Shown here piece after piece: positions 4,201 to 57,628 of a DNA stretch of 64,000 bases. How positions within the stretch are numbered: the stretch's first letter is position 1; each line of letters begins with the position of its first letter. The notes under the pieces were generated by a model, which saw only the letters and a list, made by a program, of their open reading frames with translations, was not told where the DNA came from and did not search any database. The translations under genes were made by a program, and so were the position numbers. The stretch spans positions 59,325 to 123,324 of the forward strand of contig CP064998.1 in the NCBI GenBank assembly GCA_016700035.1, given 5' to 3'. The stretch comes from a bacterium. Its GTDB lineage: Bacteria > Patescibacteriota > Saccharimonadia > CAILAD01 > GCA-016700035.

Positions 4201-4326
4201 ATGGCTTTAGTTGTAATGCTGATGATTGCAATGGTGGCGGCTCTTATTTGGTATGCATTTAATGGTGGTAAACAGGCCACTACTCCAAGATCCACTCCAG
4301 CTGAAACAGTGATTCCAATCGACTAG
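4201..4326 (+). CDS. putative 41-aa single-TM small protein
   Basis: ATG preceded by GGAGGG at 9 nt spacing. The peptide MALVVMLMIAMVAALIWYAFNGG... is strongly hydrophobic. It is the 3' part of a longer 70-aa track ORF. Coding status is unproven. Confidence 0.3.
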   Translation: MALVVMLMIAMVAALIWYAFNGGKQATTPRSTPAETVIPID

Positions 4327-5717
4327 TTATTGCGCCGATTGCTTGAGCTACTTGGTGAGGTAGATGGAGTTGGGGCTGGAAGGTAATTACCGTAGTCGGA
4401 TCCGATGATGATAACAAAATCTTGAGCTGGGTTCTTGACCTCTTTTTCGGGGGTTGTGGCGGTGACTTTAAGGACTCCTTCTAGATATGATTTAGTATTA
4501 TTCTTCGCGCCACCAGTGTAGTCGATAATTTGCGTGGTGGCGTGATCGCGCTTAAGAGCATTGGTTACTTGGGTGATGGTAAATGGTAGCTTTTCTTTAT
4601 TGAGCTTGGTTTCAAGTTTTCCACCGAGGCCTGCCGTTGATGTGCCATTTTGAATAACGATGGTAGCATTTTCTTTCCAGATGGGACCGAGCCGGAAAAT
4701 ATCTTGTGCGAAAGTTTGGATAGAAGCAAGGGTTGAGTCGACCGGTAAAAGATCACTCGATCCGGCTGGGTCTGGCTCCAGAAATCCATTTGGCTCAAAC
4801 GAGAATACAGCATTAATAATTTGATCATCGGCAATATCTTTAGTGAGGTCATTGAGGCGTAACATACCTTGAACCGACATATCAGTTTTAACATTATCAC
4901 CAGCGGTTTGAATGAGAGCGGTGAGTTTTGCAGGATTTAAGATGGTCTCAGTACTCATGGCTTTAGTGCGGATGGCGGTGATTACCTCTTGCTGCCTGGT
5001 GGCTCGGCCAAAATCATCACCACAAGTACCTTTGCGACAACGAGCGTATTTGAGGGCGGTTGCGCCATCAACCTTTTGCCGACCAGGCTGAAGCTTAAAG
5101 CCACAGCTTTTCCATTGGTTTTTATCGCAGGGATATTCGGGGTCATGCAATAGGTATTGATTGTCTATTTCAATTCCACCAACAGCATCAACAGCTTGTT
5201 TGAGGCCAGTAAAGTTGGCGCGAACATAGTAATGCACGGGCACATCTAGAAAATCTTCAACAGTTTGAGTAGCGAGTGGAATATCGCCGTAGGAGTTGGC
5301 AGTATTAATTTTTTGATAACCATGGCCCTTAACTTTTACTCGAGTATCACGCGGTATGGAGATCATCGCGAGCTTTTTTTCACGCGTATTGACACTCAGT
5401 AAAATATTGGTGTCCGCTAGCCCCTCGCCATCGTGGCCGGGGTCGCCGGTGCCAAGTAGGAGGATATTGACTCGACCCTCGTCTTCACCCTTGAGCTTAG
5501 ATTCAAATTTAAAGAAATTTGGGGCGATTTTAGCAATATTCTTAAATGCAAATAAGCCAAAAATTACTAATATAACAGTAAAAATACAGCCCAATACGAG
5601 TAGGACTTTTTTCCATCGCGACATGGGCTCTTTTTTGCGTCCTACAACTTTTTTCAAATTGTGGCGTTTGTCGCTGATGGGGTCGTAGATAAAATCTGGC
5701 GGTGGTTGCTTTTGCAT
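4323..5717 (-). CDS. LCP family (LytR-CpsA-Psr) cell-wall glycopolymer transferase
   Basis: N-terminal TM anchor followed by the LCP core (ILLLGTGD...ADTNILLSVN...ISIPRDT...VNYYV) and a LytR_C-like tail. The ORF is 464 aa. Confidence 0.85.
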   Translation of the reverse strand: MQKQPPPDFIYDPISDKRHNLKKVVGRKKEPMSRWKKVLLVLGCIFTVILVIFGLFAFKNIAKIAPNFFKFESKLKGEDEGRVNILLLGTGDPGHDGEGLADTNILLSVNTREKKLAMISIPRDTRVKVKGHGYQKINTANSYGDIPLATQTVEDFLDVPVHYYVRANFTGLKQAVDAVGGIEIDNQYLLHDPEYPCDKNQWKSCGFKLQPGRQKVDGATALKYARCRKGTCGDDFGRATRQQEVITAIRTKAMSTETILNPAKLTALIQTAGDNVKTDMSVQGMLRLNDLTKDIADDQIINAVFSFEPNGFLEPDPAGSSDLLPVDSTLASIQTFAQDIFRLGPIWKENATIVIQNGTSTAGLGGKLETKLNKEKLPFTITQVTNALKRDHATTQIIDYTGGAKNNTKSYLEGVLKVTATTPEKEVKNPAQDFVIIIGSDYGNYLPAPTPSTSPSSSSNRRNN

Positions 5718-7543: not shown

Positions 7544-7795
7544 ATGAAGTCCGAAGATAAAGTTTGGTTTAAGAAGCGCTCACATGGGCCTGGTTGGCTA
7601 CCTAAGAACTGGCTTGGCTGGCTGATAGTATTTGTGTGGCTGATGTTTGTTACTGGTGGTATATCGTGGCTTAACCTGGTATTTGAAAATGTTTGGTTGG
7701 CAATGGCTGTTTCAGTTGTTTGGTGTGGTTTCATGCTGGGCGTTCTGTCTGCGGTGGCACATTTAAAAAGTGGTAAGCCAAAAGATATGGAATAG
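7544..7795 (+). CDS. small membrane protein (2 predicted TM helices), hypothetical
   Basis: 83 aa with Trp-rich hydrophobic segments. Confidence 0.4.
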   Translation: MKSEDKVWFKKRSHGPGWLPKNWLGWLIVFVWLMFVTGGISWLNLVFENVWLAMAVSVVWCGFMLGVLSAVAHLKSGKPKDME

Positions 7796-7812: not shown

Positions 7813-8244
7813 ATGAGGCTAGTGCTTTTTGTTCATTTAGTGGCTTTTGCGGTCGGCTTTGGCTCGGTGATGCTGGTTGATATTACTGGTGCATTGTGGG
7901 CGATTGGTAGAACCCAAAAAGACCTGGTAGTAAGAGTGGGTGCCATAGCTCAATGGGTAATATGGGCGAGTGTTGCCTTGTTGGTGATTAGTGGATTGGT
8001 GTTATTGCCCGACAATATCACCACACAACTCAAAATTAAGCTAGTGGCGGTAGGGATATTGGTTATTAATGGCTTTTTACTAGCTGGATTACACAAGGCT
8101 ACAGAGGCGGCCCACCAAGATAAATTTATTGAACTGCCACATAGTTTACAGTTGCGGAGTATTATTCTGATCTCGGTCTCTCAGATGATGTGGTGGACAG
8201 CAATGTTTATTGGGTTTTTATCTAGCTTTGGTTACGTTTTGTAG
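7813..8244 (+). CDS. membrane protein (about 4 TM helices), hypothetical
   Basis: 143 aa, strongly hydrophobic, with SD-like context. Confidence 0.45.
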   Translation: MRLVLFVHLVAFAVGFGSVMLVDITGALWAIGRTQKDLVVRVGAIAQWVIWASVALLVISGLVLLPDNITTQLKIKLVAVGILVINGFLLAGLHKATEAAHQDKFIELPHSLQLRSIILISVSQMMWWTAMFIGFLSSFGYVL

Positions 8245-9598
8245 CTTTCTTTAAGAGTTTTTTTAATTCTTCGCGAACCACCCGACGGTCATCCCAGCTA
8301 GATTTTTTACCATCTATAACAATTGATTGTTCGGCGCCTTTTCCGGTAATCAAAACTAGATCGCCAGGTCCAGCTAAAGATAGGGCATGTGCAATACCGG
8401 CTCGTCGATCGGAGATTTGCCAGTATGTTTTATTTAGCTTGCCACCGGATTCTTCAACCCCGCTGGCGATATCGGCGATGATTTTTTCAGGATTATCACG
8501 ATAGGGATCGACATTAGACAAGACAACAAAGTCGCTGTCCGACATGGCAATTCTCCCCATAATCGGTCGTTTTAACTTATCCCTGCCACCACCTTCTGCC
8601 CCCAGCAGGGTGATGACTTTACAGTTTTTCTGCACCATATCTTTAGCACTTTCCATGAGGGCCTGCATGCCGGTTTCCTCGTGCGCATAATCCACTATGA
8701 CATGAAAATTCTGCCCAGCTTCAATCCGCTCCATGCGCCCCGGTATGACTGTGAGATTTTGTAAGCCACGGGCAATAACTTGGGGAGATTTACCCAGTTC
8801 AAGTGCAGAGGCAATGGCACCGGCGGCATTACTAACATTAATTGATCCAGCTATGGGAATTCGATAAGAGTGTTTATTAATAACAAAGTTAGAGCCTGTC
8901 GCATCGCTTTCAATGCGTGTTGCGCGATAGTCACTTTTTTTGGTTACCGAATAGCTACGCTTGATGTCGGCGATGTGGTCAAAGTATTGTGTGAAATGTT
9001 CAGCATCAGAGTTAGCAATCAAAATCTTTGGCTGTAGTCGGCCTTGGACGGTTTTAGGTTTTTGCGAAAGACTAGCAAATACACGCTTATTGTGTTCGTG
9101 GAGGATTTCTAATGAATAGTTATGGCTGGCCATAAGCTCGCGGGTGACATTGGTAAAAATCAACATGTCAAAATGAATGCCAACGTGTCGCCACTGCGCC
9201 TGTCCTTCAGACGGCACTTCCATGACGGCATATTGACAGCCAGCTTGTTGCATTTCTGCGAGCACTTTTTGTAGACGGTGGCGACCTGGCATGGTCATGT
9301 GATAGGGGTTAAGGCGCTCGGCATGACCAATACGAATATTGGCGGTGCCAACTAAGCCGACTTTTGAACCATCTCCAGATAGAGCCGCCCACAGTAGGTT
9401 GGCAAGTGTAGTCTTGCCTTTTGAGCCAACCACACCAATTACAACCATGTGGCGGCTGGGCTGTCGATAGGCAAAGCTAGAAGCAATCGCTTCGAAGTAG
9501 TGAAAACTATTAATGGCACTTTGGGGAATTAGTTTTTTAAATTGATGAATCATATTATCCATTGTAAACGTTTTTTGCTCGGTCGTCAGACTTCTCAA
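8222..9598 (-). CDS. Mur ligase family protein, most like MurE (UDP-MurNAc-L-Ala-D-Glu : diamino acid ligase)
   Basis: P-loop VGSKGKTT and central VDYAHEE are MurE-like (DYAH). The C-terminal SNVDPYRDNPEKIIADI aligns with the MurE DNPR...IIxDI region. The ORF is 458 aa. Confidence 0.65.
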   Translation of the reverse strand: MRSLTTEQKTFTMDNMIHQFKKLIPQSAINSFHYFEAIASSFAYRQPSRHMVVIGVVGSKGKTTLANLLWAALSGDGSKVGLVGTANIRIGHAERLNPYHMTMPGRHRLQKVLAEMQQAGCQYAVMEVPSEGQAQWRHVGIHFDMLIFTNVTRELMASHNYSLEILHEHNKRVFASLSQKPKTVQGRLQPKILIANSDAEHFTQYFDHIADIKRSYSVTKKSDYRATRIESDATGSNFVINKHSYRIPIAGSINVSNAAGAIASALELGKSPQVIARGLQNLTVIPGRMERIEAGQNFHVIVDYAHEETGMQALMESAKDMVQKNCKVITLLGAEGGGRDKLKRPIMGRIAMSDSDFVVLSNVDPYRDNPEKIIADIASGVEESGGKLNKTYWQISDRRAGIAHALSLAGPGDLVLITGKGAEQSIVIDGKKSSWDDRRVVREELKKLLKKATKRNQS

Positions 9599-9612: not shown

Positions 9613-10530
9613 TTGATAATGGCTATGATGAGGAAATTAAATATTATCTGTGCCGGAACTTCTGAGGGAAGTGTGAATTATGGTTGTGAGGCTGCGCCAG
9701 AAGTAATCTTGCAATCTGGCCTGGAAACGATGCTCAATCGTGCAAATTGGGAGCTTAAAGTGTCTCATGTACCAGCAGTGGATGAAGACGCTCACTATCA
9801 TGATATAGCGCTCCGTAATGCCACTACGCTAATTCCTTGGTTGCGGGAATTATACCGTCAAATAGGCACTACTACTTCTTATGATGAGCGCGTATTGGTG
9901 CTAGGGGGTGATCATTCGGTTGGGGCTTCTAGTTTACTTGCCACCAAACATAGATATCCGGATGCAGTCTGTATCTATATCGATGCACACCCCGACGCAC
10001 ACACCACCGAGACCACTCAAACTAATAATCTACATGGTTTACCACTAAGAATTGCAACCGGCCAGACCCTTACAAAGGAGTTTGCCGGCCCATATTACAA
10101 GCCCCAAGAAGTTTTTTTAGTGGGCATCAAAGATATTGATTTGGCTGAAGCTCAGTGGCTCAAGGAACACAATATTGCACACCGAACTATGGATGATAAT
10201 ATTGAACAAGGAATTGGTACAATAATGAGAGAAGTAATCAAGTGGGTAGGTGACCGACCAGTACATATTAGTTTTGATATTGATTCAATAGATGCGGTGT
10301 TTGCTCCTGGTACGGGTATTCAGAATATGGGTGGTTTTACATATCGAGAGGCAGAGTATATTGCTAGAAAACTAAGTACATTGGAGCCAGTTGCAATTGA
10401 CATGGTGGAGGTAAACCCATTGCGCGATATAGATGGTAAGACGGTACTGCTAGCACAAGAGTTGAGCATGAAGCTATTAGGGGAAGAGTGGAGTGCTTAT
10501 CATAATTATTTACATTCTAGCGTGCAGTAA
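9613..10530 (+). CDS. arginase/agmatinase/formiminoglutamase (ureohydrolase) family protein
   Basis: The manganese-binding motifs GGDHS, DAHPD and SFDIDSIDAVFAPGTG are present. The ORF is 305 aa (start may be an internal Met). Confidence 0.8.
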   Translation: MIMAMMRKLNIICAGTSEGSVNYGCEAAPEVILQSGLETMLNRANWELKVSHVPAVDEDAHYHDIALRNATTLIPWLRELYRQIGTTTSYDERVLVLGGDHSVGASSLLATKHRYPDAVCIYIDAHPDAHTTETTQTNNLHGLPLRIATGQTLTKEFAGPYYKPQEVFLVGIKDIDLAEAQWLKEHNIAHRTMDDNIEQGIGTIMREVIKWVGDRPVHISFDIDSIDAVFAPGTGIQNMGGFTYREAEYIARKLSTLEPVAIDMVEVNPLRDIDGKTVLLAQELSMKLLGEEWSAYHNYLHSSVQ

Positions 10531-11132
10531 TGCGGGCGTCTCGACATCGTCGAGAAGAGATGCATTCCAGGCTAATTTTGGCTGGAATAGTATTATTGAT
10601 TGGGCTTTTTTTGGGGTTTTTGGCTTGGCGTTTTTGGGTAGGTCAGAGGGAGATTGTTTCATTTACACCTAAGTCTATTGAATTGGTTGATCGCACAGAT
10701 ATGCAGCGTGTTGAAACAGCCTGCTATGAGATGTATTTACCGAAAGACTTTGAAGTTATTAAGAACATGGATTGCCGCATGGGAGCCTATGCTAGACCTA
10801 GGAAACATAGTTATTTTCAGGTATCTCCATATTATGCTGTGAGCAGTGAAGAGGAGATGTTGGCTAAATGGCGCGAGCGCTGGTTAACACTTGGAGCAGA
10901 AGAACGTACTAAGGACAGGATAGTAATTGGTGGTCGCTTGGCCTGGAAGCTAGTGGACTATTATCCGCAAAATAAAGAGAGTTTTGTGACATATCTGGTG
11001 TTTTTGGATGCCGGAATACAAGTTGACGGCAAAGATTCGATACGGGCTTTTGAGTTACGGGGCTGGAGCACAAGTGAGGCGGATCAAAACCTGATAGCCG
11101 GAATAATACAGGACTGGCATTGGCGATTTTAG
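10530..11132 (+). CDS. membrane-anchored protein, member 1 of a local paralogous family (C-terminal WHWRF)
   Basis: 200 aa. N-terminal TM, then CYEMYLP...C and a C-terminal DWHWRF. The start overlaps the arginase stop (TAATG). Confidence 0.6.
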   Translation: MRASRHRREEMHSRLILAGIVLLIGLFLGFLAWRFWVGQREIVSFTPKSIELVDRTDMQRVETACYEMYLPKDFEVIKNMDCRMGAYARPRKHSYFQVSPYYAVSSEEEMLAKWRERWLTLGAEERTKDRIVIGGRLAWKLVDYYPQNKESFVTYLVFLDAGIQVDGKDSIRAFELRGWSTSEADQNLIAGIIQDWHWRF

Positions 11133-11191
11133 ACCACTACTGAGTTCTAAGATGCTCATGCTATACTACAAACAGCAAGCATTGTTATTTT

Positions 11192-12358
11192 ATGAATCCT
11201 GCAGACCCAAATCTACCCCAAGCGAACCCTACTCCTCAGCCACCTCAGCCAGCTTCTCCTGCTGGTGACGTGCCGGTTTTTCATAACCCATTGGCACAAG
11301 GCTACGAAAATGGTACAGCACAGCTTCCACCGATCCAGCCAGACTCAGTTCAGCCGGTAATTCCACCACAGACTAGCTCGGTAGCACCCAATCAGCCATC
11401 GGTTAGCCCATCACATTCAATTACTGATCCACCAAGTGGCGTAAGTGCGGAGTCAGCCACCACATCATCTCCACAGCCTGTAGTTGGCGTTGGGCAAGCT
11501 CAGCCTAGAGTGAGTGAGCTATCCGACTCCTCTATAAAGCCCGCTCCTGTACGTCTAGCTCCAGTACCACGCAGTGACGATATACACGCCGGGGGCTTGC
11601 AGGATAGCTCGCAGAGTGCGCCATTTGGATCAGTGCCAACAACCAATGTCGCACCAGCCCCATCGACTAATCAAATACCATCGCAAGCAAATGTTGCAAA
11701 ACGTAAACCCATTGGGTTAATTGTTGGTCTTGCGGTTGGCGTCGCGGTTTTGCTAGTGGCTGGAATTGGAGGATATGCGTTTTTTGTGTCCAAGAAATCA
11801 AACCAACCAGTTGCTTCTAGCTCGGTTGCTGTGGGTTCAGTTCGGGATAAGACTGAAAAGCCAACTCAACCATTTAGTGAGAAGATTTCTACAGACTGCT
11901 ACATCGCTCAGGCACTTACGCCGGTTGAGACTCAGCAGAATAAAGATTGTGCATTATCAATTACGTATGGTGAACAAAAAGTTTCTTCAATATTCGTATC
12001 GGCACTTGGTCAATTTGATCTTACAACAGGAGGACAGACAGATAACAATAGCCAAAATGCTAATAATCATACAGATACTAAAAAGTATTTAGAGGCATTA
12101 ATTGTTGATATTATTCCTAAAGATTTAGTGACAACTCGGGAGGACATAAAGGTTGGCGGCTTAGATGCTACAAAAGTAGTTGGGAAAAAAGATGCCGCAT
12201 CAAGTGTTGATGTGGCCTATGTATTTATTATTCTCCCAGAGGGCGATAAGACATTTGGCGATAAGACATTTGTCGCTTTTATTGTTACCGGCGCATACAA
12301 TGATGACTATAGCCGTAAGGGCTTTGATCAATTTCTATCAACCTGGTCTTGGAAATAA
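11192..12358 (+). CDS. membrane-anchored protein with a Pro-rich N-terminal region, member 2 of the paralogous family (C-terminal WSWK)
   Basis: 388 aa. About 170 aa of P/Q/S-rich low complexity, a TM helix, then DCYIAQ...C...TWSWK. Confidence 0.6.
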   Translation: MNPADPNLPQANPTPQPPQPASPAGDVPVFHNPLAQGYENGTAQLPPIQPDSVQPVIPPQTSSVAPNQPSVSPSHSITDPPSGVSAESATTSSPQPVVGVGQAQPRVSELSDSSIKPAPVRLAPVPRSDDIHAGGLQDSSQSAPFGSVPTTNVAPAPSTNQIPSQANVAKRKPIGLIVGLAVGVAVLLVAGIGGYAFFVSKKSNQPVASSSVAVGSVRDKTEKPTQPFSEKISTDCYIAQALTPVETQQNKDCALSITYGEQKVSSIFVSALGQFDLTTGGQTDNNSQNANNHTDTKKYLEALIVDIIPKDLVTTREDIKVGGLDATKVVGKKDAASSVDVAYVFIILPEGDKTFGDKTFVAFIVTGAYNDDYSRKGFDQFLSTWSWK

Positions 12359-12373
12359 TATTAGGAGATAGGT

Positions 12374-13030
12374 ATGGGCAATATTATGGAGTCACAAAAA
12401 CATGCGCGTAAATATCATTTACTAGCAATTGGATTGGGCTTGATTGCTGTAATAGTAATATCTTTTACTATATATGCTTTTTTAACAAAAAAATCACCTC
12501 ATGATCAGCAAAAAGGGCAGGGTAGTACGGCTGTAAATGATGTTGTGGGCCAAGGTGAGTTGCAGGGTAATGAACAGAGGGATAAGGGTAAGATTGAAAA
12601 TGAATGCTACACATTTGAAGTTCCTCGCAGTATAAGTTTAGGGATGAACCAATATTGTGCAGTTGATTTGGGGTATGGCTCGAGTGAAGGGGGAGCATTG
12701 GTAGTCGCGCCTCATGCAATGGCCTATAGCGGTGAGAGTGTCATTAATTTCGATAAGAGCCTAGAGGCTTATAGAAAACAACTTCAAACAGAAGGGGTAA
12801 CGATTGCATCCGAAGTAGCGATTAAATTGGGTGGCCAGGAGGCGGTGCGGTTAACCACTGTTAAAGGCGCTGACAAGAAGATTATTATTTTAGCCAAAAC
12901 TAATACCTCGACTAGATTTGATAGTGTTGGTCAACCAATTCAAGGGATTCTAATTAGTACACCAAATATGAGCAGAGAAAACATAGAGGTAATTGATGGC
13001 GCAGTTAAGACCTGGCAGTGGCGACAGTAA
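12374..13030 (+). CDS. membrane-anchored protein, member 3 of the paralogous family (C-terminal TWQWRQ)
   Basis: 218 aa. N-terminal TM, then ECYTFEVP...C...KTWQWRQ. SD aggaga lies upstream. Confidence 0.6.
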   Translation: MGNIMESQKHARKYHLLAIGLGLIAVIVISFTIYAFLTKKSPHDQQKGQGSTAVNDVVGQGELQGNEQRDKGKIENECYTFEVPRSISLGMNQYCAVDLGYGSSEGGALVVAPHAMAYSGESVINFDKSLEAYRKQLQTEGVTIASEVAIKLGGQEAVRLTTVKGADKKIIILAKTNTSTRFDSVGQPIQGILISTPNMSRENIEVIDGAVKTWQWRQ

Positions 13031-13584
13031 CACTAGATACACCACCAATTGCGTTAATTATTCATGGCTGGAATGATGATCCAGCTAGAGGGTGGCTTGG
13101 TTGGCTAAATGCCCAATTGACGGAGCGGGGCTATGATGTTCGCTCACCACATCTGCAGATAGGCGAAAGGCCACTCCTCAAGCGCTGGAATAATCAGATT
13201 GGGCCTCTTGCTAACGAATTGAGCCAGCAGAGCATAGTGGTGGCTCACTCGCTGGGCTGTTTTTTAACTTTGCGCATGCTTGAAGCGATTAGTTTGGATG
13301 ACCCAGTTGATAAGGTGATCTTAGTGAGTGGTTTTTATGATGCCCCGAATGATACGGCGTCAAAATTTTTTGCTCCGGAGCCAGACTGGATACACATAAA
13401 AGAACAGGCTCGAAAATTTATTTGTATCTATTCTAATGATGATACTATTGTTACTCCTGATCGAACGCGACGGCTATCGCATAAGCTAGATGCAGAGCTC
13501 ATGATGCTTGCTGATAAAGGGCATTTTTTAGGCAGTCGAGGCCTGAAGACTTTGCCAGAAATATTAGAGTTTATAGAAGAGTAA
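13018..13584 (+). CDS. alpha/beta serine hydrolase of the RBBP9/YdeN-like family
   Basis: IIHGWNDDPARGWLGWL plus the nucleophile elbow AHSLG and a downstream Asp/His. The ORF is 188 aa. Confidence 0.55.
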   Translation: MATVTLDTPPIALIIHGWNDDPARGWLGWLNAQLTERGYDVRSPHLQIGERPLLKRWNNQIGPLANELSQQSIVVAHSLGCFLTLRMLEAISLDDPVDKVILVSGFYDAPNDTASKFFAPEPDWIHIKEQARKFICIYSNDDTIVTPDRTRRLSHKLDAELMMLADKGHFLGSRGLKTLPEILEFIEE

Positions 13585-16573: not shown

Positions 16574-16599
16574 AACACCCAGCCTAATAGCTAGGTGTT
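16574..16599 (-). terminator. hairpin with U-tract on the minus strand (terminator of the 16598-16951 gene); no U-tract for rpoD
   Basis: aacacc(c)agc ctaata gct(a)ggtgtt forms a stem, with aaaaa immediately 5' on the + strand, which becomes the U-tract of the minus-strand transcript. Confidence 0.45.
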
Positions 16600-44438: not shown

Positions 44439-47400
44439 ATGCCAAATAAATCGATCGATAGCATTGGCCCAAAGCCAAACAAGAATAACATTAAGCCTGT
44501 TGCTGAGCATAGGGCTGGTGAGGTTGTGCGTCCAAAGGGTGCCCCCACTCAAGCCGGAGAATCGATTAAGCCAAAAGGTTATCAGGCGCCAAAGAAACTG
44601 GAATCAACAGTAGGTAAACCCGACCAGCCTAAGCGACCTGTCAATAAGAAAAAAGTAGCAGTTTTTGCTGGGTTTGTAGGGTTATTTATCCTAGTTTCTC
44701 TAGCTGCAGTTTGGTTATTGCGCGGTACAAATTTACTTAATTCAGTCGGTAAGCCAAAGCCGGCTGCTGGTAATTTTGCCGAGGTTGGAGATCAGGCTTC
44801 AACTTTGGATGAGTTTAATAAGGTCAAAGATGCTTATCAGGGTTTTAATAAAAAGCAGGCTACACCAGCGGATAGTCAAGTGGTGGCCGCTAATGCCTCT
44901 AGAGACCTTATTACTTATCTGGCTCTAAAATCTGAAGCTGTGAAGCAAGGGGTTGAGTGTACTTGGGAAATTGTTGACACGCGCATGGCAACCCAGTATC
45001 AGTCTTATGGTGGGAAGGAGGCCTTTTATGCTTATCTAGCCCAAGAATATGGTTGGAGTAAAGAGGTTAGTTTTATGAAGACCTGCACTGAATATTACCG
45101 AGAAGTATTGGCGCAAAAAGTGATTGGCGGAACGGATGCTTTTGGAGTATATATTCGCTGGGATAACATGGATAATGATTCCACAGCTCAACAAAGGGCG
45201 ACTTATGAACAAGAGGCAAAAGCTAGGTTAGAGCGTGATTTCTTGCCTCTATTTAAGAGCGGAGCCAGCAAAGAGGAGATTTATCGAGCTGCTGATATTA
45301 GTCCGTATAGTACAGATGTAGAATTTGATAAGAAGATGGAAACACCCGGTAGCCCCTGGGTGCGTACAGTTGAATACCCACGCTTAAATGAAACTACTTA
45401 TGCTAGCTTTCAGCAGTATCCAGAGGGTGAAAGGGATATTGACTACATATCAAAGCTAGCTGTTGGTGAGAATACAGTCGTATTTAAGTCTAAGGTTGGT
45501 TATTATGCTATTTTTCGGGCTACTAATAGGATTCAAGGAGAAGCAGGGTCTATAGATCAAGTTATACAAAAGTATATTGATGGCGCTAAGCTCAGTACAG
45601 AATATTATGCATTACCAAAGCCCAGTAGTAATGGACAAGAGCAGTTTGATATGCACGATCTCAAGCAAGATAATACAACCGGCATGCTAGATTCGATGCG
45701 ACAGGCTTTAGTGCCCACGGCCCGGGCAGTAAATTGCTTTACAAACCATCGGCTGCCAATGAGTATTATTTATACCGACTATGCTACAGGTCAGCTAATA
45801 CCACTAGAGCAAATACGTACTAATAAGGGTGCGCCAATTAGTACTTTGCAAATATTAAGTACCGGCAATGTACAAGCAGCCTGTAATGATGAGCCTGCCC
45901 CAATCCAGAACGCTTATGGTGTATTAAACTTTGGATACTGGGCTGGACGAGCTAGCTGGGATGTTTTTGACCACCGAAATAATCCATGGGCTTTTAATCT
46001 GAGTTGTTACACGAGCTGGGAATTTCGCTTTAATAAGGTATATGGCTATGAGCAGGTAAATTATCAAGACGCTAGTCAGTTTGAGGTTACACTTCTAACC
46101 AACCAGTGGATCGTTCAAAATAGGGCTTCGGCTTATACTGATCATTATCGGATTCCACCCGATCTATACCAGGGTATTGCTAACGGTGCTCTCGGATATT
46201 CCATTAATGTAAGGATGCGCAAAGAGCCTCCGACCACTGGATGGAATCCGCCACTTATGACAGTCTCGGGTGAAAAACAAGAGGAAGATGGAACAACTAT
46301 CGGTGCATATGCTGACAATACTGTGAGTGAACAGCCGAACAACTTTACTAGCAGTGGTCAACCCTATTCATTTCCTGGCTTGCGGGCCGATCAAGGCCAT
46401 GTGTTTACTGTAGAGACTGAGCCTAACTATGATGTACTGGGATATCGAATAAATGGCGGGCCAATCAACCAGTCTACAACCTATACTTATGTGGCTGGTA
46501 CGACTGGCGATGGTACTACATTAGATGTGGATTGGATTTTCCGTAGACGTCCAACTGTCAATCTATCGGTAACCTGTGCGCTTATTTCGGGTAATGTTAT
46601 TGGTGGTGGCGGTGCAACCATTGAGACATATGCTCGTGTGGGCGGCGCTGATTTGGTGGATGGTGCTGGCCAGCGGATTATTCAGGGGCGAAACTTTAGC
46701 TTTACAGTTCCTGAAGCGTATAAAGACGGTGTTGGTCGAACCGTTGAGCTTCGTTTGATTGTAGATGGCGTTGACTGGGGTGCCGCCGCCGCCACCACGC
46801 TCAGCTGTAATCGTAACGCATTGTGTAGCAATAATAATTTAGGTACTGTTTTCCCCGGTAATCGTGTAACTATTGGTGTAGGTGGACAAGAAGAGGGAAT
46901 ATCAATTGCCATGTCGAATAATGGTGAGTCGATTTGGAGTACTTATTCTACCGGTACTTATCAACTAGTTCTGACACCAGAGGCAGATATTTACTGGGAT
47001 ATTGTTGCTGGTACATCAGTTCCTGCAGGAGAGAAGATTTATCCTCAGCCTAACCCAATTAGTGGTAAGACTTTTGCACCTATTACCGTTACCCTTACGG
47101 CAAGCCCTTCTGATAGCACTACACCACTAGGTTTTCAAATGGCCTTTATACCAGATGGTGGCGGTGCAGCTCAACGATTTGGAACTGCTTGCTCAACTGA
47201 GTTACGCGTGCTTTCTTCCTATGGTCCGTGGCTCCGTACGCAAAATGGCAATGTTTCTGCAATGGGTGTTATCAAGGGGCAGGAGGCATTATCGCTAACT
47301 GGTGGTAATTTAGGTGGTCGACGAGCCGCCGGTTCAGCTGGAACGACAGCTGATGGGCAAAAAGATGATATCAATTTGGAGGCTACTTACTTATTGCTTT

Positions 47401-48431
47401 CCAAAGTAGCCGGCAATGGTCCATTCTGTAGCACCAATGCCTATATACTTGGTCGTGATGGTAATGCAGGTACGATGTCTGATTTGAATAGTTGTGATTT
47501 TAAACAATATAACTTTGCGCTAAGAGCTAATTTGGAGCGAGCCTTGAGTGCTCAGACGCCAGTATCCGAAGAGCTAATTTATCGGGAAGCTTTTCAGGCT
47601 TATGATGATGCCCCAACCAGTTGCCCGTCAACTGGGCCCGAGCCTAGTGGCCCTGCTAGATATGTTAATGGTGGAACTTATGATGGTAGTGGTGCATTGC
47701 CGGGTATCTCAGCTAATAACTGCCCCACTATAAGGGTGCTAGATGGGGTGCGTGACGGCAGCTATAAGACATTGGGTGCAAATCCAAGTTTACCTTTACC
47801 TGTCGTTCCAATGTTAGTTACGTCTAGGGGTACAGTTTTGGTAGATGGCGATCTTTACATTAATACAAATATTGTAAATGCGCCTTCTGCACCAAGTTTT
47901 AATCGAGATGACCTGAATGCCCTCAATCAACTGCCAAACCTAGGGATAATTGTAAAAGGTAATATTATTATCGACAAAGACGTTACTAGAATTGATGCCT
48001 CGCTCTATGCTAGTGGCAAGATAAAAACTTGCGAGAACTTATATAATCCAAGCTCATCGACAGAAAACGACCCAAATACTTCTAACGGTTTCAAGCTAGA
48101 AGGCGGTACCGTTGCAGAGAATACTCAGGCTGCACGTTGTAGTAAGCAACTCAAAATACATGGCGTGATGGCATCTAAGGGTGGCTTTATGCTGGGGCGT
48201 AATTTTGTGGACTTTAGTGCAATGGCTGGGGCTGGACGTATTGGTCGTTCTCGATTTAGTGCCGATTTTGAATATGATGCGCGACGTGGCCTGTATTATG
48301 GTCAGCCAGCCGAAGATGTTGTCTTTAATGGATTGATGCTGATTTTGCCGCCACCAGGCTTTGAGCATCTTTCAAACCCAGATTTCTTCCAGGCGCGCTA
48401 TACGTCTGAGAGCGCTCAACCTCGCTTCTAA
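44439..48431 (+). CDS. giant membrane-anchored surface protein A (1330 aa), paralog of the downstream gene
   Basis: About 70 aa of basic cytoplasmic N-terminus, a signal-anchor TM (VAVFAGFVGLFILVSLAAVWLL), then a G/T/N/S/Y/W-rich Cys-pair-containing ectodomain with beta-helix-like repeats. Conserved C-terminal tail PPPGFEHLS...QPRF. Confidence 0.85.
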   Translation: MPNKSIDSIGPKPNKNNIKPVAEHRAGEVVRPKGAPTQAGESIKPKGYQAPKKLESTVGKPDQPKRPVNKKKVAVFAGFVGLFILVSLAAVWLLRGTNLLNSVGKPKPAAGNFAEVGDQASTLDEFNKVKDAYQGFNKKQATPADSQVVAANASRDLITYLALKSEAVKQGVECTWEIVDTRMATQYQSYGGKEAFYAYLAQEYGWSKEVSFMKTCTEYYREVLAQKVIGGTDAFGVYIRWDNMDNDSTAQQRATYEQEAKARLERDFLPLFKSGASKEEIYRAADISPYSTDVEFDKKMETPGSPWVRTVEYPRLNETTYASFQQYPEGERDIDYISKLAVGENTVVFKSKVGYYAIFRATNRIQGEAGSIDQVIQKYIDGAKLSTEYYALPKPSSNGQEQFDMHDLKQDNTTGMLDSMRQALVPTARAVNCFTNHRLPMSIIYTDYATGQLIPLEQIRTNKGAPISTLQILSTGNVQAACNDEPAPIQNAYGVLNFGYWAGRASWDVFDHRNNPWAFNLSCYTSWEFRFNKVYGYEQVNYQDASQFEVTLLTNQWIVQNRASAYTDHYRIPPDLYQGIANGALGYSINVRMRKEPPTTGWNPPLMTVSGEKQEEDGTTIGAYADNTVSEQPNNFTSSGQPYSFPGLRADQGHVFTVETEPNYDVLGYRINGGPINQSTTYTYVAGTTGDGTTLDVDWIFRRRPTVNLSVTCALISGNVIGGGGATIETYARVGGADLVDGAGQRIIQGRNFSFTVPEAYKDGVGRTVELRLIVDGVDWGAAAATTLSCNRNALCSNNNLGTVFPGNRVTIGVGGQEEGISIAMSNNGESIWSTYSTGTYQLVLTPEADIYWDIVAGTSVPAGEKIYPQPNPISGKTFAPITVTLTASPSDSTTPLGFQMAFIPDGGGAAQRFGTACSTELRVLSSYGPWLRTQNGNVSAMGVIKGQEALSLTGGNLGGRRAAGSAGTTADGQKDDINLEATYLLLSKVAGNGPFCSTNAYILGRDGNAGTMSDLNSCDFKQYNFALRANLERALSAQTPVSEELIYREAFQAYDDAPTSCPSTGPEPSGPARYVNGGTYDGSGALPGISANNCPTIRVLDGVRDGSYKTLGANPSLPLPVVPMLVTSRGTVLVDGDLYINTNIVNAPSAPSFNRDDLNALNQLPNLGIIVKGNIIIDKDVTRIDASLYASGKIKTCENLYNPSSSTENDPNTSNGFKLEGGTVAENTQAARCSKQLKIHGVMASKGGFMLGRNFVDFSAMAGAGRIGRSRFSADFEYDARRGLYYGQPAEDVVFNGLMLILPPPGFEHLSNPDFFQARYTSESAQPRF

Positions 48432-48515: not shown

Positions 48516-51500
48516 ATGAGTCCAAAGCCCATAGACCCCATTTCTCCAAGTCAAAAGGCTTCGGCCGAGTCAGCTGAGTCTATCATTCCACGGAATGCAG
48601 ATTCAGCTCAGGTTTTAGCAGAAGCCAAATCAAGACTAGAGTCCGCCAAAGAGGAACAATCTAGATCTCGCCGGAGGCTATTATTCTGGGGATTACTGGC
48701 TGGTTTGATCATATTTTTGGTTGGTGCTGGAGTTATTGCATATAAAGCATTAGAAGATAAAAAGCTGGCTGAAGATGAGTATGCGGTTATTGAGGGGCGA
48801 TCCATAAAACAGTCTGAGTTTGAAGCTCTGCGCGACGCATATATTCGTTATGATCAACAAAAAGGGCAAAGTGATAAACGTATATCTGAGAGGCGTGCTG
48901 CCGATGAGCTAATGACCAGAGTTGGATTAGAGGTACGGGCTGAGAAGTATGGTATAGGAGTTACTCAAGATGATATTGACTCTTATTTGGCGCCAGCGTA
49001 TTTGCAGTATGGGTCTAGGGATGGCTTACTAAGATACAACCAACATCTTTATGGCTGGGATGAAAAACCTCTATATCATAAAGCTAAGTTAGATTTATTA
49101 AAGCAAAAACTACAATCAAAGATAATTGCGGAGATGGATTTATTGGGTGTGTATATTAGGTGGGATAATCACATGGATAAGTCTGAAGAATTTCAAAAAG
49201 AATATGGGCGTAAGGCTGTTGAACGACTGGAAAAAGATTATCTTCCGAGACTCAATGGAGGCCAAGTCGCAGGTGACTTTATTAAAACAACGGACGTAAA
49301 CGCGTCTCTGCCTGTAGAATTGAATAACGAAAGGCTTAATAAAACTGACGACCCCATAGTACGTTATCTGGAGTTAAAGTCAGCGGTTAATGACCCTAAA
49401 AATGATCCTTTTCAGCACGGGCAGAAAGCTAGTGATGCAAAGTCCGCTTGGGCAGAGATAGAGAAGCTTGAGAAAGTAGGGGACACTACGCCGGTTTTCA
49501 AATCTGATAGTGGTATGTATTTAGCCTTGCGTATCGAAAGGAAGTCAGAAGGCGAATACATAAGCTATGAGTCATACCTCAAAAAAGCTATACAAGAGGG
49601 AAAAGTAGACAGCAGTTATAATGAACTACCAATACCGGATAATGGCCGCAACATTCTACCAACACCAACAAGTAGTGCGGATGTAAGTTTGCTTGCCAAG
49701 TTTCTACCAAAAGCTACTGCTTCAGGGTCGAGAGACTGTTGGGCACAAGACCCCCTTCAGTATGAGATGCGGCCAGCAGATGGTAGTGCGGGTTATGCGT
49801 CAATTACTAATAATCCATTTACGGTACTTGTAGTTCGTTCTGGATCCGATACGTGTATTCCGTATAATGGTTTTGGTTATTTTATGAATGCGCAAGGAAG
49901 ACAAGCGTGGACATCTCCGAATGTGCAGCACGGTATGGTGATACCGCTCAATTGTTATGGTGTAGTGTGGGATTTTGCTTGGTCAGCTCCTAGTGGCTAC
50001 CAGGGCTTTACCGCGGGTGATTATCAGGCTCCAAACAGAATATTAACCGGTTTTGGATCTGGTCTTGTATGGGCACCATCTGACATATCGGGGCTTTGGA
50101 GAAATGCGAATATCTATTATGGTATTGCAAACGGCGCTGGTCGCTATGCGGTAGCACCTATCTTTTATCCTGATGCACCACCCCCACCACCACCACCTCT
50201 CTACAATATTACCGGATGGAAAGCTGATCGCTACGGCAATGCAACGCCACAAGTTGCTGGTGCTGTAGTTCGAGATACTAGTGTGGGTGATTCAAGTGCG
50301 ACGCAACCATTTACGCTAAATGGAAGAAATCAAGCTCAAGACCATATTGTCCAAGCTCAGGATACACCAGACTGGACTGCGACTGGCTGGGAGCTAGTGA
50401 ATAATGGTACATCTGGTAATCAAAACTATTATGGTTTTCCGGCCAGTTCAACACCAGTTAATTCAACCCAATCAATGATTTTTCGTTATGAACCACGTCC
50501 ATCTAGCGTTAGAGCTGGGATACTTGTAAAAGATCCTTCTACGGGTGCTTTATCAAACCCATGCACACAGTCAGGTTATCAGAATGTACCATGTAGTAGC
50601 GGGACGAATGTTACCTTGCAACGTACCTTTAATTTACCGCCTGGTTTAGTAAATTCTTATTCAAATGCAACAATGAGTCAGACTACATCAAATGGGGCAG
50701 CTACATATGGGGGTCTTTATACTGGTAGTTATACAGCAACAGCTAGTGGTATTCCGGCAGGCTGGCAGATAGTGGGCACTTATCAGTGTAGCGATAATGC
50801 TGATCCAAGCAATTGTTTTCCAGCCGATGGGGCGGGTGTTAGCCCAAATTCTAATGGTGTGATGCCGATTTGGATAGAAGCTAATCGTAGTCGGCCGGTA
50901 TTTTACGTATTGCAACCAAATCAAATGGCACTAAAGGGAGATAAGAAAGGGCCGGGGACATTTACTAGTACTCAAAATAGCGATACTACCAACTTAGGTG
51001 TTGGGACTATAATGGTTGGCGCTCAGACGGTTTCTGGCAATAATCAGGCTGGAGCTTGGAATGCTCCACTTAACTTTAATCCTTCCAGTGGTGCATATAG
51101 TGTGCGTGCGGTAGCTCCGGCAGGCTGGCGAATTCGTGGCTATGCATTTTGTGCGTCAGCCTCAGCACTGTCTAGTTGTGCGTCAAATGATGCTGTTTTG
51201 GCGCCAAATAATCAAACTCAGGGCCAACTTATTCTTGGCGGCAATGATACAACAGATTATTCATTAAACATTGATTATACAAATCCAGATGGCCAAGCTC
51301 GGTTTAATGGTGTAGTAATTCCGGCTGGAGGACAACTTTGGGTAACCTTTTTCTTTAAGCCAGCACCAGTAACAATTCAGGTACGAGGCAAGATAGACAT
51401 GCAAGGAGGCAATGGTACCGCCAATACCGACCTTAATCCCTGCGCATTCAATGACTATAAAAGAAATCTTTGCACCCAGACTGAACTACAACCCGTGCGC

Positions 51501-54951: not shown

Positions 54952-55989
54952 ATGGAATTATTCGTTGAAGATGAACATTATTTTGGAGTTGACCTCGGTA
55001 ACTCCGGTATCCGATTGGTTGAGCTTAAACTAATTCATGATAAGCCCACACTCGTTACTTATGGTGATATTGAATTACCGTTTGGACTGATGAGTTCTGA
55101 TTCTCCAGCTGATCAGGCGCGAATTTCAGAGATACTCAAAAAGCTGGTATCAGACGCTCGTGTGAGTACCAAAAATGTTGTAGCTGGTTTACCGGCTAGC
55201 AAAGTATTTGCCAGCGTGCTTAAACTGCCACAGATGGCTGATAATGAAATTGCCCACACTATTCGCTTCCAGGCCGATAAATATATTCCGATGCCAATTG
55301 ATCAGGTGAAGCTAGATTTTTTCCGTATAACTCGCGATAAGGAAGCTGAAGAGATCGATGTATTATTGGTTGCCACACCAACCAGTATTGCCAATAAATA
55401 CCTTAATATTTTCCAGCAAGCTGGACTGGAGTTGATGGCTTTAGATATTAATGCAATTGCTCAGTCGCGCTCGATGGTACCAAATGCTGATATTGATGTG
55501 GTGGTAGTAGATTTTGCTTCTTTAACCACTGATATTGGCCTAATATCGGCTGGAATTCCGGGACTGATTCGATCGGTTAATGTGGGTGCTAAATCTCTTA
55601 TTCGAGTGACATCTCAAAACCTTGGTCTCGATGAAGTGCAGGCCGAGCAGTTTGTGCGTAAGTTTGGCCTAACTCAAACTAAGCTAGAGGGGCAAGTTTA
55701 CCGCTCGATGAAGCCGTTACTTGATAATGTAGTAGAAGAGATTAAGCGCTCAATGGAGTTCTTTTACCAAAGTAACTCTGGCCGTAAAGTGGAGAAGATT
55801 GTTATTACTGGTGGTCCGGCAGCAATTCCAGAAATGCCGGTTTATCTTGCAAATGCACTGGGCTTACCCGTTGAAATGGGTAATCCATGGCAGAAGATTA
55901 GCTATGCCACTGAGTTTACAGACCGCTTGTCGGGTATGGCGTTAAGTTATTCCACATCGGTTGGTTTGGCGTTAAGGAATATGGTGTAG
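54952..55989 (+). CDS. pilM: type IV pilus assembly protein PilM (actin-like ATPase fold)
   Basis: FGVDLGNSGIRLVELK has an N-terminal actin-like fold. The ORF is 345 aa, first of the pilMNO order. Confidence 0.8.
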   Translation: MELFVEDEHYFGVDLGNSGIRLVELKLIHDKPTLVTYGDIELPFGLMSSDSPADQARISEILKKLVSDARVSTKNVVAGLPASKVFASVLKLPQMADNEIAHTIRFQADKYIPMPIDQVKLDFFRITRDKEAEEIDVLLVATPTSIANKYLNIFQQAGLELMALDINAIAQSRSMVPNADIDVVVVDFASLTTDIGLISAGIPGLIRSVNVGAKSLIRVTSQNLGLDEVQAEQFVRKFGLTQTKLEGQVYRSMKPLLDNVVEEIKRSMEFFYQSNSGRKVEKIVITGGPAAIPEMPVYLANALGLPVEMGNPWQKISYATEFTDRLSGMALSYSTSVGLALRNMV

Positions 55990-55992
55990 GCT

Positions 55993-56619
55993 ATGTCGGT
56001 TCGGATCAATTTGCTCCCCGAAGCCCGTATGATAAAGCTGAAAAATCAGCAAACCAAACGCTTGGTTACGGTGGTTTGCTTGGTTCTTTGCAGTAGTGTA
56101 GGGATTGTCTTAGTGGTATTACTCCTGCTTTTGGGTGCACGCAATATTCAGTTTGCTACTAACAAGGGAAATATCGAAGAGCTGAATAAAAAGATTGCTG
56201 CTAAAGCTGGTGTAGAGCAAGATGTGGCATGGTTTAATGGAGCTCTTACCGAAGCTGATTCACTTTCTAATAATCGAATTCTCATCTCGCAGCTTTTTGG
56301 TCAACTAGCTAATGCTGCACCTCCTGGCATTAAGATTGCAAGTCTATCGGTGGATCCAGAGTATAAGGTCAAAGCATCGGTTGAGGCGACTGACTTTAAT
56401 AATGTGGCACTCTTTATGAATGCCTTAAAGACTTATAATGTTGAGTTTAATCCGATTGCTGGTTTTGATAGGGTGCCAGTTTTTACCGATGTTGATGTTC
56501 AGGCTGTTACCAAGCGTAAGCAGACTGATAATGCCAACTTTGAAGTAAGCTTTAAAGTTGATGAGAAGCTAGTAAAGAAATTCCGTGAAGACAGTAAGGC
56601 GAATGAGGAGAATAAATAA
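55993..56619 (+). CDS. pilN: type IV pilus assembly protein PilN
   Basis: 208 aa. INLLP motif near the N-terminus, a single TM, then a periplasmic-type domain. Confidence 0.7.
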   Translation: MSVRINLLPEARMIKLKNQQTKRLVTVVCLVLCSSVGIVLVVLLLLLGARNIQFATNKGNIEELNKKIAAKAGVEQDVAWFNGALTEADSLSNNRILISQLFGQLANAAPPGIKIASLSVDPEYKVKASVEATDFNNVALFMNALKTYNVEFNPIAGFDRVPVFTDVDVQAVTKRKQTDNANFEVSFKVDEKLVKKFREDSKANEENK

Positions 56620-57604: not shown

Positions 57605-57628
57605 CCCTAGCGAGGTAGATACTATAAA

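Follow-up and report, generated by a model that had tools for sequence, protein, structure and literature searches.

The Mog1p/PsbP-like fold, an alpha/beta sandwich common to LpqN, DcrB, PsbP, and the Eag chaperones, is known in roles that include Ran binding, an extrinsic subunit of photosystem II, T6SS chaperones, immunity proteins, and lipoproteins. The eukaryotic Mog1p/RANGRF proteins bind Ran in the cytosol or nucleus and have no membrane anchor, and PsbP belongs to a photosynthetic context. The DcrB/DUF1795 group (PA0094, EagT6, SciW, and DcrB; PDB 1tu1, 6xrb, and 6e8a) comprises both the Eag chaperones, cytoplasmic T6SS components that bind the transmembrane (TM) helices of effectors, and DcrB itself, a lipoprotein of diderm bacteria. 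In the group of LpqN (Rv0583c) and its secreted or lipoprotein relatives from actinobacteria, LpqT, Apa, and MTC28 (PDB 6e5d, 5zxa, and 4pws), a lipobox or signal peptide takes the place of a TM anchor, and LpqN is described, in the part of PMC7458404 that cites Melly et al. 2019, as an envelope-biogenesis factor that interacts with MmpL3 and MmpL11. Here, we describe three consecutive saccharibacterial genes, designated M1, M2, and M3, whose products share a domain, predicted to be extracytoplasmic, that constitutes a previously unnamed sequence family and a new branch of this known fold.

The three genes lie in tandem within the window, by which we mean the whole stretch of 64,000 nucleotides that was analyzed (Table 1). 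An earlier note had read them as open reading frames (ORFs) of one common architecture, with a cytoplasmic N-terminal segment, a single TM helix, and an extracytoplasmic domain, and both the ORFs and this architecture were recovered for each of them. The size of about 170 residues that it gave for the ectodomain is reached only if the conserved linker is counted, the folded part being about 145 to 160 residues. The TM helices span 21 to 27 residues across the three proteins, and a linker of about 30 residues holds the ectodomains close to the membrane. The cytoplasmic segments of M1 and M3 are only about 15 residues long, that of M1 being basic (MRASRHRREEMHSR), as against the 170 residues of M2, where an extra Pro/Gln/Ser-rich N-terminal region had correctly been pointed out. 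We infer an N-in/C-out topology for all three proteins from their basic N-termini, the tails without a signal peptide, the cytoplasmic Zn-ribbons of relatives, and the conserved Cys pair; the charge pattern flanking the TM helix of M3 is by itself no firm guide to topology. None of them has the makings of a lipoprotein: a cytoplasmic segment of 15 to 170 residues is followed by the TM helix, and there is no Cys near the helix end.

Table 1. Features of the M1–M3 locus, in coordinates of the window
Feature	Residues	Nucleotides	Strand	Remarks
murE		8222..9598	-	TIGR01085, 298 bits (cut-off, 257); conserved context, outside the family
Arginase-family gene		9613..10530	+	Pfam PF00491, E 3e-55
M1		10530..11132	+	200 aa; ORF, ortholog alignment, profile matches to M2 and M3
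M1 TM helix	~15-35	10572-10634	+	
M1 Cys pair	C65; C82	10722-10724; 10773-10775	+	
M1 W-x-W	W196-H-W198	11115-11123	+	followed by R-F-stop
M2		11192..12358	+	388 aa; core member; ORF, ortholog alignment
M2 cytoplasmic tail	1-170	11192..11701	+	Pro/Gln/Ser-rich, predicted disordered
M2 tail motif PVFHNPLA		11273-11296	+	conserved (FxNPL)
M2 tail motif PAPVRLAP		11540-11563	+	conserved (APVRLAP)
M2 TM helix	174-200	11711..11791	+	AF2 helix; AKRKP just before
M2 ectodomain	229-388	11876..12355	+	PsbP/Mog1-like fold (predicted)
M2 Cys pair	C236; C253	11897-11899; 11948-11950	+	
M2 disordered insertion	275-293	12014-12070	+	within the ectodomain
M2 W-x-W-K	W385-S-W387-K	12344-12355	+	
M3		12374..13030	+	218 aa; ORF
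M3 TM helix	~16-37	12419-12484	+	
M3 linker DVVGQGELQGNEQRDKGKIE		12539-12598		nearly invariant, though predicted disordered
M3 ectodomain	72-218	12587-13027	+	
M3 Cys pair	C78; C95	12605-12607; 12656-12658	+	
M3 W-x-W	W214-Q-W216	13013-13021	+	
Ser_hydrolase gene (PF06821)		13018..13584	+	Pfam E 1.6e-25

Upstream, murE and the arginase-family gene are transcribed divergently, and M1 does start, as first read, on the stop codon of the latter, the two sharing the letters TAATG. M2 and M3 are separated by 15 nt, with an AGGAGA 5' of M3. The reported overlap of M3 with the Ser_hydrolase gene amounts to 13 nt with the GTG at 13018 as start and thus depends on the choice of start; in the related locus L003, the hydrolase gene is called 81 nt further downstream. 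Cotranscription of the arginase, M1–M3, and hydrolase genes is plausible. The hydrolase gene is followed by dnaG and then rpoD, an LCP transferase gene lies near the family locus, and elsewhere the window has type IV pilus genes, clustered as is usual in Saccharibacteria. The arginase-family gene directly precedes the family in all full-length related loci, L014 aside, as seen in L001, L003, L004, L017, and L019, and murE keeps its position in L001, L004, L017, and L019. The order murE (minus strand)/arginase/family/Ser_hydrolase/dnaG/rpoD persists even where the members match only at E values of about 1e-13 to 1e-17. In the streamlined genomes of Saccharibacteria, such synteny may reflect inherited gene order and not functional linkage.

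The paralogy that had been proposed for the three proteins is supported by pairwise and profile alignments alike. In BLASTP comparisons, M1/M3 and M2/M3 were recovered at E values of 5e-7 and 7e-6 and M1/M2 at 0.004, with mutual identities of about 17 to 25%. Alignment of the three sets of orthologs with hhalign gave probabilities of 95.3% (E 2e-8), 98.1% (E 1e-13), and 97.7% (E 2e-12), and these matches run end-to-end over the full domain, i.e., the similarity extends well past the motifs. The contexts of the Cys pair are as previously described in all three proteins, at a spacing of exactly 17 residues in each, and the same holds for the tails DWHWRF, TWSWK, and TWQWRQ. In a joint alignment (n = 38), two Cys and two Trp are the only invariant columns; in the alignment of M1 orthologs, both Cys and the W-x-W-R-F are invariant. 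Among the 87 ORFs of at least 80 residues in the window, M1–M3 alone have a W-x-W no more than three residues from the stop codon, an ending for which, from a Trp frequency of 1.1%, the chance is about 5e-4 per protein. The low identities, together with the BLASTP value of the M1/M2 pair, are all that might recommend attributing the resemblance to chance, or the ORFs to annotation artefacts, and we regard the probability of this as next to negligible in the face of the profile–profile E values, the many orthologs of each ORF under purifying selection, the confidently predicted folds, and motifs that no other ORF of the window shares. As for the tandem triplication that had been suggested, three adjacent paralogs are indeed present, but a recent event was rejected: every paralog has a separate set of orthologs, and the mutual identity is 17 to 20%, making the paralogs ancient. 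A profile search of the window found no further paralogs; two weak matches, to a pilin whose N-terminus bears a methylation motif (62049-62453) and to an ORF of the pilM/pilN pilus cluster without a family match (56619-57356), probably arise where the profile covers the TM helix.

Beyond the window, a profile search at E <= 1e-3 recovered 216 clusters, with nearly all matches reaching the protein C-terminus. The two hallmarks are conserved in orthologs and across this wider family: W-x-W lies within four residues of the protein end in 113 of 139 relatives, and the ectodomain has exactly two Cys in 174 of 183 members, mostly spaced by 17 to 18 residues, giving the signature C-[YF]-x16-17-C ... 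W-x-W-[KR]. All records that bear a name belong to Saccharibacteria or Patescibacteria, in support of the earlier idea of a lineage-specific family of membrane-anchored extracytoplasmic paralogs. The remark that no named domain family could be recognized likewise stands: M1–M3 have no Pfam or NCBIfam match at E <= 1, and no known Pfam or DUF family with an unconserved W-x-W was found to cover the domain. Further architectural variety is seen among relatives, which display N-terminal tails of up to 340 residues without a signal peptide, N-terminal, cytoplasmic Zn-ribbons (eight relatives), tandem arrays of two to four domain copies per polypeptide, and, in one multidomain protein of 1147 residues, a Big_7 domain. 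Other members of the domain family are surrounded by unrelated gene contexts. We found nothing relevant in the literature linking Saccharibacteria or Patescibacteria with PsbP, LpqN, or Mog1, or on PsbP_2 (PF18933).

Comparison of predicted models with solved structures places the ectodomain among the Mog1p/PsbP-like alpha/beta sandwiches, in which helices flank a central antiparallel sheet. It is a known fold and not a new one, with identities of 3 to 15% to every structural neighbor. At the sequence level, PsbP_2 (threshold, 27 bits) is matched weakly by 5 of 139 distant relatives at E <= 0.01 (best E, 3e-6), a scan of three batches of relatives against it adding the marginal matches P0182 (E 0.068) and P0161 (E 0.032); M1–M3 themselves do not match it at E <= 1. 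They also lack matches to PsbP (PF01789), DcrB/DUF1795 (PF08786), LpqN (PF10738), and Mog1 (PF04603), and these four are outside the top 25 Pfam families for the 139 relatives. All sequence-profile matches to PDB entries (among them FliL, ACE2, and the poliovirus receptor) were discarded as TM-helix-driven noise. The LpqN group is alike in fold, but its identity to M1–M3 is only 4 to 12%, with no HMM match, and M1–M3 differ from it in having a cytoplasmic tail and an N-terminal TM helix as anchor, in a C-[YF]...C and W-x-W-[KR] signature of their own, and in the occurrence of three tandem paralogs. Similarly, M1–M3 share the fold of the DcrB group, but they are TM-anchored where DcrB is a lipoprotein, and their locus offers no T6SS context such as that of the Eag chaperones. 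A photosynthetic context, as for PsbP, is equally missing from the locus, and there is no sequence similarity to Mog1p/RANGRF.

The three paralogs are unequal in their conservation. M2 was found in all 16 related loci examined, with M1 and M3 variably present, so that the copy number of the family at the locus ranges from one to three across lineages. In close relatives, the ectodomain of M2 retains 81 to 86% identity, comparable to MurE (83 to 86%) and DnaG (79 to 84%), as against 54 to 68% for M1 and 55 to 59% for M3. On these comparisons, M2 is the ancestral core member, conserved at the level of housekeeping proteins, and M1 and M3 are duplicates that evolve faster. The tail of M2 is modeled with low confidence (pLDDT below 50-55 over most of residues 1-170 in the AF2 model), but nearly all of the scanned M2 orthologs, including those with as little as about 35% identity, keep FxNPL and APVRLAP, and the MxPxD N-terminus is likewise conserved. 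The NPL motif is also enriched in the long tails of distant members (18 of 46, versus 3.7±1.7 in shuffles).

The position of W-x-W, one to three residues from the stop codon in M1–M3 and near the end in most relatives, might suggest that W-x-W-[KR]-COOH is a sorting, anchoring, or recognition signal, comparable to WxL, to sortase or exosortase substrates, or to ligands of PDZ proteases. The tandem-domain relatives make this very improbable: their internal copies, each with its own Cys pair, all end in W-x-W (in one case F-x-W) followed by a linker, and a free carboxyl terminus is hence unnecessary, on which ground we rejected the PDZ-ligand and sorting-signal readings. Because the internal copies keep it, W-x-W marks where the domain structurally ends and is not a signal of the free C-terminus; of the conserved extreme C-terminus that had been reported, the conservation is real, but the motif closes a domain. 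In keeping with this, the last residues of M3 are modeled as a beta-strand within the fold at a pLDDT of about 93, and the C-terminal tail of M2 is likewise a high-confidence strand. Known sorting signals have a hydrophobic segment after the motif. Such a segment is absent here, with only zero to two residues after W-x-W-[KR], which also speaks against signals of the LPXTG, PEP-CTERM, and GlyGly-CTERM types. Neither M1–M3 nor the 139 relatives match a Pfam WxL or sorting-signal family, and the WxL domain (PF13731) is further set apart by the single W-x-W per domain and the predicted PsbP-like fold.

As to function, M1–M3 could be adhesion or host-interaction proteins of an epibiotic lifestyle that bind the surface of a host (e.g., an actinobacterium), with the paralogs diversifying specificity. 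The predicted surface exposure, a family so far restricted to the lineage, the variable copy number, the multidomain versions such as the Big_7 protein, the faster evolution of M1 and M3 relative to the neighboring genes, and the pilus cluster would all accord with such a role. We nevertheless hold it to be rather unlikely, as the M2 ectodomain is conserved like MurE and DnaG, which is not the pattern of a typical adhesin, small proteins such as these are kept near the membrane by their linker, and an operon-like housekeeping context is maintained across deep lineages. That context, in which rpoD lies downstream of the genes and translation of M1 is coupled to that of the arginase, could instead be taken together with the overall architecture, the conserved motifs of the M2 tail, and the Zn-ribbons of the eight relatives to indicate a transmembrane sensor or anti-sigma-like device, whose tail relays a ligand signal, possibly to RpoD, DnaG, or the arginase. 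This too strikes us as unlikely. No zf-HC2/RsiW-type anti-sigma, kinase, or other signaling domain was found in M1–M3 or the 139 relatives, for which reason a membrane anti-sigma factor was rejected as a candidate. The sigma factor encoded nearby is RpoD, the primary one, and not an ECF factor; control of a primary sigma factor by a membrane anti-sigma factor is not known. Moreover, the cytoplasmic segments of M1 and M3 comprise only about 15 residues.

We propose instead that M1–M3 are N-in/C-out proteins whose PsbP-like domains form a nonenzymatic binding or adaptor platform in cell-envelope biogenesis, a joint reading to which we give an even chance of being right. The fold alone fixes no role, as it is functionally promiscuous; on our analysis, a role of the module in the biogenesis or maintenance of the envelope is most likely, given the analogy with LpqN and DcrB and the conserved neighborhood of murE and the LCP transferase gene. 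Each protein would display one domain of about 150 residues at the external surface of the cytoplasmic membrane. The domain opens with C-[YF], and its Cys pair probably forms a disulfide staple, in line with a place outside the cytoplasm; speaking against the staple, the two Cys precede strands beta2 and beta4, which would lie somewhat apart in a simple meander. The short terminal beta-strand, W-x-W-[KR], closes the fold. The linear motifs of the M2 tail (MxPxD, FxNPL, and APVRLAP) most likely recruit a cytoplasmic partner, and M1 and M3 probably associate with M2 via their ectodomains or the conserved juxtamembrane linkers, such side-by-side working of copies fitting the tandem fusions of two to four copies seen elsewhere. 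A more specific version, in which M2 is an essential, Saccharibacteria-specific factor coupling the tail-recruited partner to an LpqN-like platform formed with M1 and M3, we consider quite improbable as it stands. In that version, the partner could be the arginase, with its translational coupling to M1, or peptidoglycan-precursor machinery associated with MurE, and the platform might serve to handle a wall precursor or, alternatively, to take up host-derived lipids. Saccharibacteria have been reported to be unable to synthesize lipids themselves.

The definition of the domain does not in itself reveal a new mechanism. Given its housekeeping-level conservation and its locked synteny with murE, the arginase-family gene, and dnaG-rpoD, M2 offers itself as a concrete target in the few cultivable Saccharibacteria, by Tn-seq or CRISPRi as well as by pull-downs with tail peptides. 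Seed alignments are supplied from which a Pfam-style family, new to the PsbP/Mog1 clan, can be built. A large share of the membrane and surface proteins encoded by the small genomes of Saccharibacteria and other Patescibacteria is unannotated; for the M1–M3 set, there is now a defined domain, for which boundaries, signature, and fold class are described and the topology is predicted.

M1, M2 and M3, the three neighboring membrane-anchored proteins of this Candidatus Saccharibacteria genome, are encoded by the three ORFs that the earlier note had delimited, and the cysteine contexts and C-terminal tails quoted there (DWHWRF, TWSWK and TWQWRQ) are correct in the sequence. Their two cysteines are 17 residues apart in each case, and no other ORF among the 87 in the window that reach 80 aa has a W-x-W motif within 3 residues of the stop; with tryptophan at 1.1% of residues, the chance of such an end is about 5e-4 per protein. 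Pairwise BLASTP similarity is weak (M1/M3, E 5e-7; M2/M3, E 7e-6; M1/M2, E 0.004). Separate searches retrieved 11, 13 and 29 ortholog clusters for the three proteins, and when the three ortholog alignments were compared profile to profile, the domain matched end to end (95.3%, E 2e-8; 98.1%, E 1e-13; 97.7%, E 2e-12). In the joint alignment of 38 sequences, the two Cys and two Trp are the only invariant columns. Chance or artefact as the source of the resemblance is vanishingly improbable and was excluded. Of the proposed tandem triplication, the paralogy stands, whereas a recent origin is rejected because mutual identity is 17 to 20% and each paralog has its own orthologs; judged by sequence, the three are ancient paralogs.

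Coordinates of the family genes and of other features in the window
Feature	Position	Strand	Remarks
LCP (LytR-CpsA-Psr) glycopolymer-peptidoglycan transferase gene	4323-5717	-	about 5 kb upstream of the family
Small multi-TM ORF	7544-7795	+	83 aa; no family assignment
Small multi-TM ORF	7813-8244	+	143 aa; no family assignment
murE	8222-9598	-	
Arginase-family gene	9613-10530	+	
M1	10530-11132	+	ORF, 200 aa
M2	11192-12358	+	ORF, 388 aa
M3	12374-13030	+	ORF, 218 aa
M3 juxtamembrane linker DVVGQGELQGNEQRDKGKIE	12539-12598	+	residues 56-75; almost invariant in M3 orthologs; AlphaFold pLDDT <50
Hairpin	16574-16599	-	11-bp stem; strand as reported
Giant ORF	44439-48431	+	1330 aa; directly upstream of pilus cluster
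Giant ORF	48516-54863	+	2115 aa; directly upstream of pilus cluster
Type IV pilus cluster	54952-63333		typical of Saccharibacteria

As the earlier note had suspected, no named domain family covers these proteins: Pfam and NCBIfam gave no match to any of the three even at E<=1, and PDB sequence-profile searches returned only matches driven by the TM helix. The Pfam domain PsbP_2 (PF18933) is matched by 5 of 139 distant relatives (best E 3e-6) and was not reached by M1, M2 or M3 in the Pfam search. In the AlphaFold2 model of M3 (mean pLDDT 80.8; ectodomain mostly 80 to 98), a TM helix (residues 11-37) and a low-confidence linker (40-68) precede five strands, a helix, four strands, a helix and a short final strand, which is the W-x-W. 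The separate M2 model has a disordered tail (1-170), a TM helix (174-200), a disordered insertion (275-293) and the same order of secondary structure in its ectodomain; structure comparison matched it to LpqN (10.5), PA0094 (10.0), PsbP (10.0) and Mog1 (9.7). Since both models match known members, the predicted fold is the known Mog1p/PsbP-like sandwich.

A search of 1.84 billion representatives with the 38-sequence profile recovered 216 clusters at E<=1e-3 (98 at E<=1e-10), almost all of the matches reaching the last residue of the protein. W-x-W, mostly followed by K or R in family members, lies at most 4 residues from the C-terminus in 113 of the 139 new representatives. Exactly two Cys, mostly spaced by 17 to 18, occur within the last 175 residues of 174 of 183 family proteins, with Y or F directly after the first in 172 of those 174. 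Nearly all members possess a single strongly hydrophobic segment directly before the domain, and their N-terminal regions, of about 10 to 340 residues, are usually Pro-rich; eight relatives have N-terminal zinc ribbons. All organism-named records are Candidatus Saccharibacteria or "Patescibacteria group," so that, for named records, the family is lineage specific as had been suggested.

The near-terminal W-x-W could be read as a C-terminal sorting or recognition signal, but relatives with two to four domain copies per polypeptide contradict this. Four are present in P0132, and two each in P0090, P0100, P0110, P0112, P0115, P0129, P0131, P0137, P0141, P0152 and P0170; the internal copies each contain a Cys pair of their own and close with W-x-W-[KRLQ] (F-x-W in one case), after which comes a linker. 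Hence, W-x-W is a structural element, the strand that ends the domain, and readings requiring a free carboxyl terminus (a sorting signal or PDZ ligand) are ruled out, leaving a terminal signal highly improbable. The high pLDDT of W-x-W in both models agrees with a last strand, on which both Trp side chains are predicted to face one side, either the core or an exposed aromatic patch. Two of these distant members occur in other gene contexts and architectures: P0132 (L020, 2966-6409; 1147 aa) combines a Big_7 domain with its four tandem copies near DivIC and Peptidase_M23 genes, and P0090 (L021, 1120-2493) is a Zn-ribbon-TM protein whose gene is followed by that of a Zn-ribbon Peptidase_M48.

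We infer an N-in/C-out topology from the basic N-termini (M1, MRASRHRREEMHSR; M2, AKRKP ahead of the helix), from tails of 170 to 340 aa that could not be exported for want of a signal peptide, from the cytoplasmic type of the relatives' zinc ribbons and from the even number of Cys, a pair, that nearly all members have in the C-terminal domain; for M3 on its own, the charge balance around the TM is not decisive. The M3 juxtamembrane segment (consensus DVVGxGELQGNEQRGxGKIE) is highly conserved despite its predicted disorder and may thus be a binding interface. The M2 linker VRDKTEKPTQPFSEK is similarly conserved, and both are candidate interaction segments.

M1 does start on the arginase-family stop codon (overlap TAATG), and M3 overlaps the hydrolase gene (PF06821) by 13 nt, counted from its GTG start. 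The M1-M2 gap is 59 nt, and the M2-M3 gap 15 nt, with AGGAGA 5' of M3. As the junctions are overlapping or tight and no convincing terminator was found in the intergenic gaps, cotranscription from the arginase-family gene to the hydrolase gene is plausible. The hairpin directly after the rpoD stop may be a terminator; no other strong terminator-like site occurs from the arginase gene to the end of rpoD, and this fits a long operon. The order murE (-), arginase-family gene, family genes, Ser_hydrolase, dnaG and rpoD is kept in three closely related loci (L001, L003 and L004) and around the very distant members P0095 (E 2e-17 to the profile) and P0124 (E 3e-13). Copy number varies across loci, with M1-M2-M3 in the window's clade, M1 and M2 in L015 and L016, an M2-like and an M3-like gene in L017, and a lone long-tailed M2-like gene in L011, L013, L014 and L019; hence, M2 forms the core, with M1 and M3 as accessory duplicates. 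Identity to close relatives is 81 to 86% in the M2 ectodomain, comparable to MurE (83 to 86%) and DnaG (79 to 84%), with M1 at 54 to 68%, M3 at 55 to 59% and the M2 tail at 51 to 59%. Within that tail, all full-length orthologs scanned, to identities as low as about 35%, retain P[VAS]FxNPL, and just two of them lack APVRLAP. More distant long tails show an M-x-P-x-D N-terminus, [ML]PPNPL and YGPPPKK ahead of the helix; NPL occurs in 18 of 46, versus 3.7±1.7 in shuffles.

The divergent murE and arginase-family genes are just 14 nt apart, a pairing conserved over deep Saccharibacteria lineages (L001, L004, L017 and L019). The DNPR motif marks meso-DAP-specific MurE enzymes; the window MurE has VDPY in its place and is, on this motif, probably not DAP type. 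As an ornithine-producing arginase adjoins murE, one idea is that L-ornithine (or Lys) might occupy position 3 of the peptidoglycan stem. An LCP gene also lies near the family locus in L019, and these LCP genes add to the cell envelope flavor of the neighborhood. Unannotated ORFs similar in size to the small multi-TM ORFs occupy the matching place in L004 (87 and 143 aa), and two ORFs, 143 and 124 aa long, lie near murE in L017/L018. The pilus cluster encodes PilM, a PilN-like protein, two ATPases of the T2SSE family (PilB/PilT-like), a platform protein of the T2SSF family and a pilin bearing an N-terminal methylation motif, and it includes an unassigned 245-aa ORF. The giant ORFs, for which Pfam gave only a sub-threshold SurA_N_2 match in the N-terminal part of the 2115-aa ORF, may be large surface proteins.

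Solved members of the Mog1p/PsbP-like fold include noncatalytic binding platforms. Photosystem II is the docking site of PsbP, the Eag proteins act as clamps on hydrophobic helices, and DcrB is a membrane-tethered envelope homeostasis factor. LpqN is described in PMC7458404, in a passage citing Melly et al. 2019, as interacting with MmpL3/MmpL11 and supporting envelope biogenesis. We tentatively propose that the ectodomain, stapled by a disulfide, serves as an adaptor or ligand-binding module on the outer membrane face, that M1, M2 and M3 would form an assembly probably acting in envelope biogenesis or maintenance, and that the M2 tail motifs might recruit a cytoplasmic partner. This functional proposal, itself on the doubtful side, draws on the fold precedent, the extracytoplasmic membrane-proximal location, the housekeeping-level conservation of M2, the neighboring murE (TIGR01085, above cut-off) and LCP genes, and the fused copies seen in other lineages. 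A role in host adhesion would agree with exposure at the surface and with a copy number that varies but is a poor match to M2 conservation and the short tether, and we consider it unlikely. A sensor or anti-sigma-like relay, suggested by the architecture and the location upstream of rpoD, is quite unlikely, as no signaling domain was detected and the sigma factor concerned, RpoD, is the primary one.

We hold the structural and family description with high confidence; the whole explanation, function included, is evenly poised. Neither the fold nor the general kind of protein (membrane-tethered, extracytoplasmic and PsbP/Mog1-like) is new. Pfam, NCBIfam and the literature searched do not describe the sequence family with its C-[YF]...C/W-x-W signature, its type II anchoring with a motif-bearing disordered tail, or its fixed place in Saccharibacteria, by murE and the arginase gene. 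The family would be no surprise to a specialist, and it is a useful, well-delimited domain of unknown function and a good genetic target.
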